DNA of 64,000 bases from an uncultured Candidatus Micrarchaeota archaeon (GCA_903884505.1 CAISET010000030.1:29701-93700); one strand, 5' to 3'; positions 2,513-44,633 are shown, numbered from the stretch's first letter. The notes: generated from the letters alone by a model not told the origin. Made by a program: numbers and translations.

Positions 2513-3799
2513 ATGCACGACGCTGACTTTGAGATAGCGGTCGAGAGCCTCTCGAAGATTGAGGGGCACGCCAACCTAGTGGTCTCCGTGCACGAGGACC
2601 GCGTGGTGGATGCGAGGCTGGAGATAGACGAGAGCAAGAGATTCTACACGCAGGCGATACGGGGGAAGCCCTACGCCGCGCTCCCGCAGATGGTCTCGAG
2701 GATATGCGGAACCTGCAGCACGGCGCACCTCCTCTGCTCGATGGAGGCGGTCGAAGAGGCGGTCGGCATAGTGCCCTCAGAGCAAGTGATGACTGTCAGG
2801 AAGCTCGCCATGTATGCCGCGTGGATAAGGGACCACGCGATGCACCTTTACTTCTTCTCCCTGCCGGACCTTCTCGGGAAGGACTCTGCGCTCGAGTTCG
2901 ACGGCAAGGAGCACGAGCTCCTCCACGATGCGCTCAAGGTGAAAGGGGCAGGGAACAGGTTCGCCAAGCTCATAGGCGGAAGGGCCGTGCACCCCACCTA
3001 CTTCCAGCCCGGGGCCGTCACGAGGCTGCCGAAGAAGGAGGAGGCGAAGGCAACCATCAAGGAGCTGCGGGAGATAAGGCCGATGGTCCTCAAGCTCATA
3101 GACCTGTTCTACCATTCTGGGCAGGAATTCCACAGGACCACGCACTTCGCTGCGGTGGTAAATAACGACTACAGCTTCTGCGGAGAGGAGATAATGCTGT
3201 CGAGCGGGATGTCCGTGAAGGAGGACGACTACTTCAACCACCTGATGCGCGTTGTCCTTCCCTACTCGACCGCCACTGGGTTCGCCTTCGAGGGCTCGGC
3301 ATTCATGGTAGGCGCGCTCGCGAGGATGGATCTGAACAGGGGAAGCCTTCATCCAGACACGAAGAAGGACGCTTCACAGCCGATGAGCGCTTTCCCGACG
3401 AAGAACATCTTCCGCAACAACCTCGCCCAGGCGATAGAAATACTCCACGCGATAGACGCCTCATGCGAAATCCTCGAGCGCACCGACTTCAAGGAGGAGC
3501 AGCCAGCGAAGCCGCAGAGGAAGGGAGGCGTTGGGATGGCGGCGATCGAGGCACCGCGCGGAATTCTTTTTTACCAGGTTGATGTTGGCGAGGACGGGCT
3601 CGTGCGCGACGGCACGCTCGTAATCCCCACGCAGCAGAACCAGATAAACATGGTGAAGGACATGAAGACGGTCGTGCAGGCGAACATCAGGAAGGACCAT
3701 GAGGAGATAAGGAAGGAGCTCGAGGCTTTGATACGCGCCTACGACCCTTGCATGAGCTGCGCCTCCCACTTCCTGAAGATAAAGTGGGTAAAAGCCTAG
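2513..3799 (+). CDS. [NiFe] hydrogenase large (catalytic) subunit
   Basis: N-terminal 'RICGTCSTAH' and C-terminal 'DPCMSCASH' Ni-Fe ligand motifs. Start overlaps the small-subunit stop (TGAATG). Confidence 0.85.
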   Translation: MHDADFEIAVESLSKIEGHANLVVSVHEDRVVDARLEIDESKRFYTQAIRGKPYAALPQMVSRICGTCSTAHLLCSMEAVEEAVGIVPSEQVMTVRKLAMYAAWIRDHAMHLYFFSLPDLLGKDSALEFDGKEHELLHDALKVKGAGNRFAKLIGGRAVHPTYFQPGAVTRLPKKEEAKATIKELREIRPMVLKLIDLFYHSGQEFHRTTHFAAVVNNDYSFCGEEIMLSSGMSVKEDDYFNHLMRVVLPYSTATGFAFEGSAFMVGALARMDLNRGSLHPDTKKDASQPMSAFPTKNIFRNNLAQAIEILHAIDASCEILERTDFKEEQPAKPQRKGGVGMAAIEAPRGILFYQVDVGEDGLVRDGTLVIPTQQNQINMVKDMKTVVQANIRKDHEEIRKELEALIRAYDPCMSCASHFLKIKWVKA

Positions 3800-21861: not shown

Positions 21862-22077
21862 ATGGCGATGTTCGAGTTGCCGATTCTAGAAGTTGAGAGG
21901 TTCATCAGGAATGCAGGGGCGCAGCGCGTCACGGAGGCCGCTGGGAAGAAGCTCACGAGGCTGCTTGAATGCCGCGCAGAGAAGATAATAGAGAATGCGG
22001 CGATGATTTCGAGGTATGCCGGCAGGAAGACAATTACAAGGGAAGACATCATCCTCGCGCTTGAATTCGAGAATTAG
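21862..22077 (+). CDS. Archaeal histone (HMf family). The 3' end lies in a 25-bp direct repeat.
   Basis: 'MAMFELPILEVERFIRNAGAQRVTEAAGKKLTRLLE...AGRKTITREDIILA'. GGAGG RBS. Ends with an atypical 'LEFEN*'. Confidence 0.85.
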   Translation: MAMFELPILEVERFIRNAGAQRVTEAAGKKLTRLLECRAEKIIENAAMISRYAGRKTITREDIILALEFEN

Positions 22078-23469
22078 GATTCAACTTGATTTGCGGAACA
22101 GTTTTATTCTTCCTCCACCAAAATCCATGCATGCCAACGACCGTGGCCCCAAACCAAACTAAGACTAAAACCGGCAGCGAAGCGGCTCTGGAGAATAGGG
22201 CGAAAGGGCTTCTCAATCGCTTTGGAGATGCGATGGCAGAACTTCGTGGGCCTGAGTTTTACAGTTCAGCCCATTGGCTGTTCAAACTCCATGATGAAGA
22301 CCCCGCCCTCTTCAATCTTGTCTGGTACCGCTACACGGAGAAGATGGGACGCGTCGAGCCGACCAAGACGCTCACCGTTCCCCAGCAGCGCGTGGACCTC
22401 GAACGGGCATGCCCTCCAACAGAAAGAGAAAAGATGAAATCCGAATGCGATGCTTTAGGCGAAGCGCTGACGCAGAGGATTCCGAGCCGCCGCTTCGCCT
22501 CCATAATCTTCTCCCTCCGGTCTCATTTTGTGATTGGAGATTTATTTATCCAACATCATCCTTTGTGGGAAGATAATGACTCAAAGCTTGCTGCGAAGGT
22601 CATGCGTCTTCTAGCCAGCACCGATAATTTAGCGCATCGTGACCTAATCATGCGCGCGCTGTCAAACGGCGCCGAATTCAAGGGGGATGTGCTCAACGAG
22701 GATATGCTTGCGGGGCGGATTCATAGGATTGTGAATGGGAACAAGGAACTGCGGCTGTTCATAATCTGGGGCGGAGTAAAATGGAGCGAGGAGGGGACCG
22801 CGGACCTTTGGGATGAAAAGGCGGTGGAAACGCTGAAGGCAATCCAGGGGCGCGTCCGCGCCGTCTACCCGAACACCTCGGTGGAGCTTATTATCTGCGA
22901 CGTCCATGCCGCCGACTTTGCGGGCAAGCCGCTGGAACACGTCTACCGCTACGCCGGAAACCAGGGCTCAGCCGCGGATGCGAAGACGCTCCACGCCCTC
23001 GCAAAAAAGCACGGGCTTAAGATGGTGCCGCTTTCGGAGATATATGACTATTTCAAAGGAAGAGGGATGCAGGGGGAGCTTGCGAGAGCTGAGCGCAAGG
23101 AATATCTGAAGTCGCGCGAGATACTGAAAAGAGACGTGGCGTATGCGCGTCTCCTCGACGATGCGGCAGAGAAGCATTCAGATCTTGTCAGGGAAGGAAT
23201 CAAGAAGAAGGAGCAGGCGGCATTGGACTACTTGGCAAGGAGGCGCTTCGAGGCGAAGCTCTTCCAGATGTGGTGTCCGGATGCAGTTTTCTTGAGCTTT
23301 GCCGGTGATACGGAGAGAGAGAAATACATCATCAGCTCGCCAATTCCCGTAATTTGTATCTATCCATACAGGAAGAGCACGAAGAGCGACCTGCCCTGGT
23401 TCAGGGACATGCGCACAGAGGACCGAGAGTCGTTCCCACCTCAAGAATTCGAGAATTAGGATTCAACTT
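22063..23469. mobile_element. 1.38-kb insertion between convergent histone genes, bounded by a 25-bp direct repeat GAATTCGAGAATTAGGATTCAACTT
   Basis: Direct-repeat copies at 22063-22087 (histone 3' end) and 23445-23469 (3' end of the 457-aa ORF). Both encode 'EFEN*'. Confidence 0.6.
22086..23459 (+). CDS. Hypothetical 457-aa protein (cargo of the direct-repeat-flanked insertion); alternative start at 22131
   Basis: Long ORF with coding-like composition and no recognised catalytic motif. The C-terminus 'QEFEN*' is encoded by the direct repeat. Confidence 0.5.
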   Translation: MICGTVLFFLHQNPCMPTTVAPNQTKTKTGSEAALENRAKGLLNRFGDAMAELRGPEFYSSAHWLFKLHDEDPALFNLVWYRYTEKMGRVEPTKTLTVPQQRVDLERACPPTEREKMKSECDALGEALTQRIPSRRFASIIFSLRSHFVIGDLFIQHHPLWEDNDSKLAAKVMRLLASTDNLAHRDLIMRALSNGAEFKGDVLNEDMLAGRIHRIVNGNKELRLFIIWGGVKWSEEGTADLWDEKAVETLKAIQGRVRAVYPNTSVELIICDVHAADFAGKPLEHVYRYAGNQGSAADAKTLHALAKKHGLKMVPLSEIYDYFKGRGMQGELARAERKEYLKSREILKRDVAYARLLDDAAEKHSDLVREGIKKKEQAALDYLARRRFEAKLFQMWCPDAVFLSFAGDTEREKYIISSPIPVICIYPYRKSTKSDLPWFRDMRTEDRESFPPQEFEN

Positions 23470-23479
23470 ATTTCTTTCT

Positions 23480-23686
23480 TTAGTCTGCCAGCCGGATATC
23501 TTCTTCCGTTACTGTCTTTCTCCCGGCGTGTTTCGCCAGTTTCGCGGCCTTTGCCGCGATGCGGCCCGCCTGCTCCTCAAGAACGTCGCGGAGAGCCGAG
23601 GCTGCCTGCGGAGAGACGCGCGTCGCGCCGGATTTCCTGATGAGCCGCTCGACGGCGGCTATCGGAAGTTCTGCCATAAGAAGCAC
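23480..23686 (-). CDS. Archaeal histone (HMf family), second copy
   Basis: 'MLLMAELPIAAVERLIRKSGATRVSPQAASALRDVLEE...AGRKTVTEEDIRLAD'. Confidence 0.85.
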   Translation of the reverse strand: MLLMAELPIAAVERLIRKSGATRVSPQAASALRDVLEEQAGRIAAKAAKLAKHAGRKTVTEEDIRLAD

Positions 23687-23696
23687 CTAACAGAAT

Positions 23697-23777
23697 CTAC
23701 TCGAACTCCTCCTCTTCCTCCTCTTCGTACTCCTCCTCATCCCAGTCTTCCTCTTCCTCCTCGTCATCGTCAAACAT
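23697..23777 (-). CDS. Ultra-acidic 26-aa micro-protein (MFDDDEEEEEDWDEEEYEEEEEEEFE), 10 nt upstream of histone 2
   Basis: ATG preceded by a gaggtga RBS at appropriate spacing. Uninterrupted GAG/GAA run. Not in the ORF track (<60 aa). Confidence 0.35.
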   Translation of the reverse strand: MFDDDEEEEEDWDEEEYEEEEEEEFE

Positions 23778-23847
23778 TTAGGGCTCACCTCGTTGAAAGC
23801 GCGTTTCTTATTGCCCATGTGGTTAATAAGGCTATCGCCGCCCCCTT

Positions 23848-24465
23848 TCAGCTGACGCGGCTCTTCTGCGGCTTTTTCGGGGTTTCCGGGCTTTCCGTTA
23901 TCTTCCGGAGGGCTTTCTCACTAATCTTCTGATAACTATTTAGGCGGAAGAGCAAGTTCTCCAGCGTCTGCTTCGGGACGAGCCACTCGTTCTCGTGCTC
24001 CCTGCGCCAAGCGGCAATCTCTCCGCCTGCCTCTTTGTGGATAATGCTTGACACTTCCACCGCGCCGTTCATCTTCACCATGGTCCAGGCCTTCTTGTTG
24101 AGCACCTGCCAGAGCTTGAGTCCGGGCTTTTCCCCAAGAATGAGATTGGAATCGCCAATTGGCGCAACCGCATAAACTTCAACCCCGCGGAACTTGGGTG
24201 CGACATACATCCAGCCGATTGCGCCGGCCTTCAGGTCAGCGATTGAGAAGCCAGCAGGCTTATCGATTCCATAGGCCGCGACAACCGCGAGCTTTAGCCC
24301 GCCCTTTATCTGCCTCTCCATCTCTTCGAGCGTTTCGCCTCCCTTCACCGCCGCCTTCCATTCCTTGTAAAGGCTCCGGAAATCATCCCAGTCAAAGTCG
24401 TCGCCGACGTCGCCGCAGAGTATGCGGACGCGGACCTTTTTGGCCTCATTTTCTGCCATGCCCAT
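23848..24465 (-). CDS. Hypothetical protein
   Basis: 205-aa ORF with no recognised motif. Confidence 0.4.
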   Translation of the reverse strand: MGMAENEAKKVRVRILCGDVGDDFDWDDFRSLYKEWKAAVKGGETLEEMERQIKGGLKLAVVAAYGIDKPAGFSIADLKAGAIGWMYVAPKFRGVEVYAVAPIGDSNLILGEKPGLKLWQVLNKKAWTMVKMNGAVEVSSIIHKEAGGEIAAWRREHENEWLVPKQTLENLLFRLNSYQKISEKALRKITESPETPKKPQKSRVS

Positions 24466-43670: not shown

Positions 43671-44633
43671 TTATTTCTTCCCTTTTTTCGCAGGACCGAA
43701 TTTCGCCCCACATTCAGGGCAGAATTTCGCGTCCTTTGCGATGAGCGCGCCGCATTTCACGCAAGCTTTCTGCCCGCCTCCTGCGGCTGGCTGCTGGCCC
43801 GCCTGCTGCGCCATCCCTGCGCCCATGGTCGGAATCATCGCGATTCCTGCGCCGAACGCAGCGCCGCCTCCGCCGCCTTTCGCGAGCTCGCGGCTGCTCT
43901 GCACCATCATGTCCTTCGTCAGGACCATCTCGCTGCGCGCGCCGCTCTTGATGTAGAATAGCCGCTCCTGCCACTCTTTCCAGGTAGCCTCATCCTCTGG
44001 CCTCAGGCTAACTCCTGAAATCTTCAGGTCAATCAGCCCGATTCCGAACCTTGAGAGCTCCTCACCAATCTTGCTCTTCACTTCCGCGCTCGTCTCATCG
44101 AGCTTCGTGTAAATCTCGTCGAACGGGAAGCCCGCGAGCGTGTCCATGAACTTCTCCAGGAAGAACCCGTTCAGGTAGTCGCGGATTTCCTGCGCGCCAT
44201 ATCCCGGCTTCGTTCCCACAACTCCGATAACGAAAAGCTTGGGGTCATCAATTTTGAACCAGAATTCACCGAAAGCCCGGATTCCGACCTGGACAAATTT
44301 CGGCACCTGCGGGTCGTTCGAGAGCTTCAGCATAACGGGCTGGGGCGTCCCGAATTTCCCCTGCGCCTTCCGTACAGTCACGAACACCACTTTGCACTGG
44401 AACGGCGACTTCCCGAAAACGAGCTTGAACGCCTTCGTCAGCAGCGGCAGGTTCGCAGTCGTGAGGGTGGTCCTTCCAGGCCCAATCACGTCGTATGCCT
44501 TCCCATCGCGGTAGAAGACCGCCTGCTGGCTCTCGTCAACTATCAATTGCGAGCCCCACTGGAACTCCGTCCCCGGGTAGGTGTAGACTATCTCGTCGTC
44601 GGTCGTCTGGTCCCATTTGATTACATCAACCAT
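43671..44633 (-). CDS. SPFH/Band-7-family protein (Band_7_1 / T7 gp14-like) with C-terminal zinc ribbon
   Basis: 'VDESQQAVFYRDGKAYDVIGPGRTTL' and C-terminal 'CVKCGALIAKDAKFCPECGAKF'. Confidence 0.6.
   Translation of the reverse strand: MVDVIKWDQTTDDEIVYTYPGTEFQWGSQLIVDESQQAVFYRDGKAYDVIGPGRTTLTTANLPLLTKAFKLVFGKSPFQCKVVFVTVRKAQGKFGTPQPVMLKLSNDPQVPKFVQVGIRAFGEFWFKIDDPKLFVIGVVGTKPGYGAQEIRDYLNGFFLEKFMDTLAGFPFDEIYTKLDETSAEVKSKIGEELSRFGIGLIDLKISGVSLRPEDEATWKEWQERLFYIKSGARSEMVLTKDMMVQSSRELAKGGGGGAAFGAGIAMIPTMGAGMAQQAGQQPAAGGGQKACVKCGALIAKDAKFCPECGAKFGPAKKGKK

Follow-up and report, generated by a model that had tools for sequence, protein, structure and literature searches.

A conserved polyacidic micro-gene upstream of a Micrarchaeota histone gene: a candidate partner or translational controller of an archaeal histone

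The subject of this work is a very short open reading frame (ORF) in a stretch of 64,000 nucleotides from an uncultured Candidatus Micrarchaeota archaeon (GCA_903884505.1, CAISET010000030.1:29701-93700), referred to below as the window. This micro-ORF encodes an extremely acidic peptide of 26 amino acids (aa) and lies directly upstream of a gene for a histone of the HMf type, here called histone 2. Judged by its conservation among relatives and by its codon statistics, it is a real, conserved and previously unannotated micro-gene. By analogy with known acidic proteins, the most likely function of its product would be that of a co-expressed polyanion mimicking DNA, the main rival reading being that of a leader peptide acting in cis.

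Conservation and coding signature of the micro-ORF

An earlier sequence-only reading of this region had described a 26-aa acidic ORF preceded by a strong gaggtga Shine-Dalgarno (SD) sequence. Re-reading of the minus strand gave the same coordinates and peptide, with GAGGTGA 7 nt 5' of the ATG (Table 1). The 21 acidic residues were, however, reported there as consecutive, and they are in fact divided into runs of 9, 4, 7 and 1 by W12, Y17 and F25. The peptide has no basic residue (no K, no R) and standard tryptic proteomics would therefore miss it. An in-frame TAA abuts the ATG on its 5' side, so that no upstream extension of the ORF is possible. The GAGGTGA 7-mer is found, too, ahead of genuine long genes of the window, such as the one that ends at 43671. 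Within the 64 kb, no other ORF of 10 aa or more reaches 50% D/E, and across all six frames the micro-ORF contains the sole 15-residue stretch with 11 or more D/E; the composite signal TTATTAA-N30-50-GGTGA-N4-9-ATG occurs once in the window and in none of 100 shuffles.

Related loci were gathered by way of the histone, using contigs with an identical histone, species-representative genomes, a metagenome scan, and a protein search followed by contig look-ups for the closest matches. Loci entered the conservation set if their upstream DNA could be read and their histone shared at least 75% identity with that of the window. The micro-ORF is present directly upstream of the histone gene, on the same strand, in all 12 distinct DNA versions of this set (the window, L006, L019, L020-22, L023, L024, L025, L026, L027, L028, L029 and L030), which represent nine distinct peptides and more than 15 independent assemblies (ENA, JGI, Logan, GenBank). 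There is exactly one acidic tract per locus, with no second copy in the 64 kb or in any fetched locus. The micro-ORF is absent from 11 loci with upstream sequence and histones at most 70% identical, other Micrarchaeota included. For P0010, whose histone is 75% identical, the gene calls place a 43-aa gene 34 nt 5' of the histone. Among the loci gathered, the association of micro-ORF and histone is thus confined to one shallow Micrarchaeota clade. The sequence-only reading had looked to conservation upstream of histone genes in related archaea as its test, and would have been contradicted by its absence from relatives combined with an absence of translation evidence. Conservation is complete within this clade (12/12 loci) and does not extend to archaea generally.

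The substitution pattern is that of a protein-coding gene. In the aligned micro-ORFs, 235 of the 277 sense codons are GAN; G occupies codon position 1 in 239 of the 277 and A codon position 2 in 242, whereas position 3 is spread over T (27), C (62), G (128) and A (60). Variable sites at the three codon positions number 3, 5 and 26 over 29 codon columns, and pairwise differences 69, 93 and 583. The ratio of synonymous to non-synonymous pairwise differences is 400:225 in the acidic frame, compared with 18:588 and 48:531 in the shifted frames, and the non-synonymous differences in the acidic frame are mostly D-E swaps. Peptide lengths range from 25 to 27 aa counted from the conserved MFD start, and reach 29 aa in L029, which has an upstream in-frame ATG; all indels are therefore of whole codons. 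Between the window and L026, where the histones are 82% identical, the peptides are identical with six synonymous differences. Third-position transversions amount to 10.5% pairwise in the micro-ORF versus 44% at 4-fold sites of the adjacent histone gene, and synonymous transitions to 32% versus 20%; the identity of D versus E is itself kept position by position. The invariant D codons at fixed positions argue against a constraint acting purely on a purine tract. Start, stop and ribosome binding site (RBS) are all kept, and together with whole-codon indels, changes concentrated at position 3 and purifying selection in a single frame they make it very probable that the micro-ORF is a gene under selection at the level of its peptide. 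The JGI pipeline had called the gene at 26 aa in both L020 and L024; its call in L030 has 40 aa, starting from an upstream in-frame ATG that overlaps the TATA box.

The peptide consensus is M-F-D-[DE]-D-E-E-E-E-E-(E-E)-[DET]-W-D-E-[ED]-[ED]-[YAPE]-..., in which M, F2, W, several D/E positions and the DWDE motif are invariant. The aromatic residues are F2, a W near position 12, usually a Y near 17, and often, near the C-terminus, an F or in its place an S. Asp and Glu make up about 80-90% of the peptides. The genes flanking the unit vary: the window and L020 have a 205-aa gene there, L006 has a divergent gene for a membrane protein, and L019 has the L7Ae region. Similarity to the window begins about 15 nt upstream of the TATA box (at about 23843 in L019). 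Because the flanks differ and similarity begins just 5' of the TATA box, promoter, micro-ORF and histone gene can be regarded as an autonomous module.

Table 1. Features of the micro-ORF/histone unit in the window, and spacers between micro-ORF and histone gene at related loci
Feature	Position	Strand	Description
Polyacidic micro-ORF	23697..23777	-	ATG to TAG, 26 aa + TAG: MFDDDEEEEEDWDEEEYEEEEEEEFE; 3434 Da, net charge about -21
Shine-Dalgarno GAGGTGA	23785..23791	-	7 nt 5' of the micro-ORF ATG; G[AG]GGTG invariant across loci
Spacer, micro-ORF stop to histone ATG	23678..23696	-	19 nt, pyrimidine-rich; weaker histone SD AGGTG at 23684..23688
Histone 2	23480..23677	-	65-aa HMf-type nucleosomal histone; MAELPIAA... 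start; pI (isoelectric point) 9.8, net charge +2.6
Archaeal TATA box TTATTAA	23823..23829	-	About 45 nt 5' of the micro-ORF ATG; invariant in 12/12 aligned loci
A/T-rich element AATAAGAAAC	23803..23812	-	Consensus [GA]ATAACA, between TATA box and predicted transcription start
Spacer, L020	2369-2384		
Spacer, L023	207-229		
Spacer, L024	353-373		
Spacer, L025	1027-1043		
Spacer, L027	371-386		
Spacer, L029	759-777		

Standard annotation cannot see the micro-ORF because it is shorter than 30 aa and of low complexity. None of eight peptide variants was present, by exact look-up, in a collection of 15 billion proteins. A profile of the nine peptides run against 5.8 billion proteins gave 4972 word candidates and none at E<=10, and neither a Pfam family nor a chain among the PDB sequences was found for the peptide at E<=10, homology tests being weak for a sequence so short and of such low complexity (which defeats HMMER). 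With the same weakness of the tests, no homology to the eukaryotic acidic histone chaperone families (nucleoplasmin, NAP, prothymosin/parathymosin, APLF) was detected by Pfam, PDB or profile. No description of an acidic micro-ORF beside archaeal histone genes was found in the literature searched. A scan of viral_contigs for the start MFD[DE]DEEEE returned three giant-virus contigs. In each of them the matching residues belong to an acidic stretch within a longer ORF, the DNA is AT-rich, and the match was set aside as unrelated; these giant-virus (GVMAG/IMG-VR) sequences, MFDEDEEEEEEEEEDELDELDD..., lie at L031 11319-11347, L032 4931-4959 and L033 10471-10499, in an acidic C-terminal region. The histone used as query found no relatives in viral_contigs.

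Promoter, spacer and histone context

From its consensus and position, we infer that the TTATTAA box is the promoter of the micro-ORF/histone unit. In archaea, transcription begins some 25 nt 3' of the TATA box; the position of this box therefore predicts an mRNA leader of about 20 nt that includes the SD sequence, with the micro-ORF as first cistron. The sequence-only reading had placed the micro-ORF on the strand of an HMf-type histone and, probably, on its transcript; the strand is indeed shared and so, going by its motif, is the promoter. Between the box and the predicted start, the [GA]ATAACA element is found in 12/12 loci with invariant T, A, A and A columns (alignment A2, columns 50-56), and could be a promoter-proximal element or the binding site of a regulator. 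In the aligned upstream regions, G[AG]GGTGA stands at a distance of 6-8 nt from the micro-ORF ATG.

The gap between micro-ORF and histone gene measures 6, 16, 16, 17, 18, 18, 19, 19, 21, 23, 50 and 73 nt in the 12 loci, that is, 6-23 nt in ten of them, 50 nt in L030 and 73 nt in L028. The 10 nt given for the window by the sequence-only reading had been measured to a mechanical GTG start at 23686, listed among the predicted ORFs; all homologues and the database gene calls start at ATG 23677, and the true gap is that of Table 1. In this clade the histone ATG is preceded only by GGTG, GTGG or AGGTG, whereas relatives without the micro-ORF have a strong SD sequence, GAGGTGAT, directly before the histone ATG (L005 ~2985-3000, L008 ~2985-3000, L010 ~1613-1628). 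The position of the strong SD sequence in the two groups therefore means that the strong ribosome entry site of the histone serves the micro-ORF in this clade, and is a hint that the micro-ORF originated within what was once the leader of the histone gene.

The spacers are pyrimidine-rich around their GGTG core and contain runs of T5-T6 in 8 of the 12 loci; that of the window is without a T-run. Such runs can end transcription in archaea, and here could yield a short transcript of the micro-ORF alone or act as an attenuator. In L028 (443-515) a T5 run follows the micro-ORF stop immediately and a TATTTAAT box lies 23 nt before the histone ATG, an arrangement that suggests that the two genes are transcribed separately in this lineage and that the histone mRNA is leaderless. 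In minimum-free-energy folds, base pairs form between the pyrimidine spacer and the GAR tract, and the histone SD is unpaired with a probability of 0.2-0.5; z values versus shuffled sequences are -1.6 to +1.1 and not significant. No conserved RNA structure was found in the locus alignment (RNAalifold consensus -3.0 kcal/mol, covariation term -0.15), so that a conserved hairpin hiding the histone RBS is unsupported beyond the purine-pyrimidine pairing that composition drives. Rfam gave no match over 23300-24000 at E<=1. A sigma-70 promoter scan, not relevant to an archaeon, found 0 sites, and two terminator-like matches on the plus strand are at the level expected by chance.

Histone 2 matches Pfam PF00808 with E=1.7e-16 (cutoff 21.4 bits), its closest solved structures are HPhA (1ku5, E=1.2e-18) and HMfA/HMfB (E=1e-14 to 1e-16), and the L2 loop AGRKT of HMf-type histones is present as HAGRKTV. 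Its length of 65 aa, this Pfam match, the likeness to HMfA, HMfB and HPhA and the loop together identify it as an HMf-type histone; it ends at helix alpha3 and has no tails. The second paralogue of the window, histone 1 (~21868..22077, plus strand), has no micro-ORF and a net charge of +0.5. The histones linked to a micro-ORF have net charges of +2 to +4 with a mean of +2.9, compared with a mean of +0.44 in 106 close homologues, a comparison that involves a single clade and hence one evolutionary event. Histone 1 begins with M-F-E, resembling the M-F-D of the micro-ORF.

In its +1 frame the acidic tract is read as an Arg/Lys-rich ORF of 43 aa (23687..23818, minus strand). This basic ORF was rejected as a real gene: its ATG is not conserved and lies at or upstream of the predicted transcription start, and its differences are nearly all non-synonymous. 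For P0007 and P0009 (loci L027 and L029), gene callers have fused the +1 frame to the histone, which gives 'histones' of 95-96 aa with a false basic N-terminal tail (MTRKRRKRRTGTRR...). Such spurious entries could pass for eukaryote-like tailed histones in DPANN archaea and mislead surveys.

Several other features of the neighbourhood may be mentioned. A perfect direct repeat of 25 nt, GAATTCGAGAATTAGGATTCAACTT, occurs at 22063-22087, where it includes the last codons of histone 1, and at 23445-23469. The segment between the two copies (22088-23444, 1382 bp) carries a 457-aa ORF with a weak DIT1_PvcA match. L002 and L003 are 100% identical to the window over micro-ORF and histone 2 and lack this segment, their histone genes being directly convergent; by this comparison the segment is a strain-level insertion or deletion. 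On the 5' side of the unit, a 205-aa ORF (23848..24465, minus strand) matches no Pfam family; close relatives have it in synteny (188-203 aa; L020-22 and ENA contigs), and it is absent upstream of the unit in L006 and L019. The G+C content of the window is about 57%, with an even composition throughout.

Possible functions of the acidic peptide

We tentatively favour the reading, at close to but short of an even chance, that the peptide acts in trans as a polyanionic partner of histone 2, as chaperone or antagonist. The single strong archaeal promoter would give a bicistronic mRNA with a short leader. Ribosomes would load at the 7-nt SD sequence, make an acidic peptide of 25-29 residues with conserved aromatics, and next reach, 6-23 nt further on, the histone start with its weak GGTG SD, so that peptide and histone would be made together. 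The peptide, with a net charge of about -21, would act as a disordered polyanion that mimics DNA and occupies the DNA-binding ramp of the unusually basic histone 2 dimer, its aromatic residues serving as anchors on the histone; by our own estimate, an extended 26-mer of about 90 Å would approximately match the roughly 30-bp path of DNA on one histone dimer. In this way the peptide may maintain new or free histone in solution, prevent its binding to nucleic acids other than its targets, and set the ease with which the histone is handed over to DNA or competed off it; being encoded on the same mRNA, the peptide would appear at the place and time of histone synthesis. Transcription as a single unit, translation, binding and chaperoning are all predicted steps.

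Several observations point towards such a partner. The linkage is exclusive to one histone paralogue, the more basic one (pI 9.8 and +2.6 versus +0.5 for histone 1); the peptide is constrained beyond its charge, with F2 and W invariant and D/E positions fixed; and L028 keeps the micro-ORF where the coupling looks broken. Comparable proteins have been described. The acidic domain of APLF is a disordered acidic segment that uses aromatic anchors to cover the DNA-binding alpha1-alpha2 surface of histone-fold dimers (PMC9328677), prothymosin-alpha is a disordered polyanion that chaperones histone H1 (PMC7661507), and the coiled-coil histones of DPANN and other archaea have highly negative disordered tails for which an auto-inhibitory role, occluding the DNA-binding face, has been proposed (PMC11390915).

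Against this stand a number of points. The peptide is always found upstream in the histone mRNA leader and never elsewhere, as a cis-acting leader would be. A D/E run from residue 3 is the strongest trigger of abortive translation known in bacteria and eukaryotes (10.1101/2021.02.02.429294; PMC9718836), and the yield of full-length peptide could therefore be low. The net charge of histone 2 is only about +3, the charge correlation comes from one clade and one evolutionary event, the clade is shallow, so that conserved gene order weighs little, and the 'own promoter' of L028 is a motif match. Transcription and translation of the micro-ORF and binding of its peptide are, moreover, all predictions from DNA sequence.

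The most serious alternative is a cis-acting leader peptide, or upstream ORF, that controls histone synthesis and whose product is not itself functional. We consider this explanation rather unlikely. The N-terminal poly-D/E chain would destabilise the ribosome (intrinsic ribosome destabilisation, IRD) in a manner dependent on Mg2+ and ionic state; only ribosomes that finish the micro-ORF would reinitiate at, or unmask, the histone start with its weak SD, and histone output would track ribosome stability or ion status. Placement and composition are those of an IRD-type leader: the ORF lies between the sole conserved promoter and the histone in 12/12 loci, with a gap of at most 23 nt in 10/12, and has D/E at residues 3-11. 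The histone SD is weak (GGTG/GTGG), where relatives without the micro-ORF have GAGGTGAT, and the spacer-GAR pairing in the folds, with the SD unpaired at a probability of 0.2-0.5, also fits. In E. coli as well as in eukaryotes, translation is aborted at N-terminal D/E runs, and MgtL senses Mg2+ in this way; bulky residues counteract the effect, a possible reason for the conservation of F2, W and Y (10.1101/2021.02.02.429294; PMC9718836). However, known IRD leaders need about 4-10 residues, and there are here 25-29 codons with position-specific D/E and an invariant DWDE. The ORF is also kept without tight coupling in L028 (73-nt gap, possible own promoter) and L030 (50-nt gap), RNA structure is not conserved (RNAalifold -3.0 kcal/mol; z -1.6 to +1.1), and IRD has so far been shown in bacteria and eukaryotes only, N-terminal D/E avoidance being absent in Pyrococcus (PMC9718836). 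The two leading readings, partner in trans and leader in cis, are not mutually exclusive.

The coding signature is silent on the target of the peptide, which could also be real and have a role unrelated to the histone, as a buffer of cations (Mg2+, Ca2+ or metal) or in partnership with some other basic protein or with a protein of the host of this episymbiont; the micro-ORF would then simply profit from a strong promoter. As textbook chemistry has it, binding of divalent cations is a generic property of polyacidic peptides, and Micrarchaeota are host-dependent DPANN archaea. Such a role is improbable in view of the exclusive linkage to one histone paralogue in 12/12 loci despite changing neighbours, and of the single copy per locus in the 64 kb and the fetched loci. 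Two further explanations are very improbable. One is that read-through or frameshifting produces a histone with an acidic N-terminal tail, as the acidic tails fused to DPANN coiled-coil histones (PMC11390915) and the gaps that are multiples of 3 in L006, L019, L024 and L026 might suggest. It was rejected: gap length and reading frame vary among the 12 loci, no locus lacks the stop codon, the histone keeps its ATG and an SD of its own throughout, and the 120 best histone matches include no fused homologue, P0007 and P0009 being out-of-frame caller artefacts. The other, equally improbable, is that the ORF is incidental to a non-coding GA-rich spacer or an RNA or DNA element (polypurine tract, SD-like sites, H-DNA); GAR repeats do resemble SD cores, and the GGAGGAG at the end of the L006 tract could be the SD of the histone. 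Against this, the tract has a strict 3-nt periodicity with pyrimidines tolerated at codon position 3 only, ATG and stop are conserved, indels comprise whole codons, invariant D codons stay fixed, and neither an Rfam match nor a conserved structure was found. The fallback of the sequence-only reading, that this is only a GA-rich spacer, is thus ruled out by conservation and codon-position statistics.

No archaeal homologues of histone chaperones, remodellers or dedicated histone antagonists are known (PMC7990501), and genes for nucleoid proteins, model histones included, are normally single-gene operons (PMC11390915). Its conservation as a coding gene makes the micro-ORF a first candidate for a dedicated acidic partner, or a translational controller, of an archaeal histone. 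It is conceivable, at rather less than an even chance, that this DPANN clade possesses a dedicated, free-standing histone partner in the form of a poly-D/E peptide of 26 residues with aromatic anchors, which shares the mRNA of the histone and acts as a disordered DNA mimic on its surface. If so, Archaea would have their first known histone chaperone or antagonist, which would also be the smallest known in any organism, and the chaperoning of histone folds by acidic disordered peptides would not be a eukaryotic invention. If the peptide is instead a leader, it would be the first candidate in archaea for nascent-chain translation control of the IRD type, linking ionic state to the supply of a chromatin protein. 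The micro-ORF offers a cheap and concrete test of archaeal histone partners, since a 26-mer with a built-in Trp reporter and one recombinant histone would suffice.

Comparison with known systems

Bacterial and phage proteins that mimic DNA towards nucleoid proteins, such as DMP12 of Neisseria and HI1450 of Haemophilus, both with HU, are acidic and occupy, as proposed or shown, the DNA-binding site of their target. They differ from the micro-ORF product in being folded proteins of about 100 aa with a patterned charge surface, and in not being operonic micro-ORFs; no homology between them and the micro-ORF was found. A peptide of 26 aa with 81% D/E and no hydrophobic core is implausible as a stable fold of this kind, and could mimic DNA only as a disordered polyanion. 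Among leader peptides, MgtL shares with the micro-ORF its shortness, its position in the leader of the gene it regulates and a D/E(P)-rich sequence right after the Met (10.1101/2021.02.02.429294). MgtL is, however, bacterial, has a motif of four residues, is combined with a riboswitch/attenuator and lies upstream of a Mg2+ transporter, whereas the micro-ORF has 21-24 acidic residues and no detectable conserved RNA structure, is archaeal and precedes a histone.

Eukaryotic histone-binding proteins are closer in composition. Like the micro-ORF product, the acidic domain of APLF is a D/E-rich stretch broken every 5-10 residues by F, Y or W; its anchors insert into the alpha1-alpha2 patches of histone-fold dimers and its acidic residues take the place of DNA phosphates (PMC9328677, PMC6101569). 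It is, however, a region of 60 residues in a large repair protein and has no sequence relationship to the micro-ORF, for which binding is a prediction. Prothymosin-alpha is, like the micro-ORF product, free-standing and extremely acidic with long stretches devoid of basic residues, and acts as a pure polyelectrolyte (PMC7661507). It differs in its length of about 110 aa, its eukaryotic origin, its disordered linker histone target and in not being co-transcribed with that target.

The nearest parallel within the same superphylum is provided by the tails of the coiled-coil (CC) histones of DPANN archaea, Micrarchaeota among them (Schwab et al. 2024, PMC11390915). These too are polyacidic, presumably disordered and tied to a prokaryotic histone, and the role proposed for them, occluding the DNA-binding face, is the one suggested here. 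The tails belong to the histone polypeptide, which has a C-terminal coiled-coil helix, whereas the micro-ORF stands apart from the histone gene, with an SD sequence and a stop codon of its own and in a variable frame relative to it. The defining architecture, an acidic segment fused to a coiled-coil histone, is not that of histone 2, a tail-less protein of 65 aa. Although a member of none of these families, the micro-ORF product would in its action come closest to a disordered acidic chaperone of histones, or to an acidic tail that the histone receives in trans.

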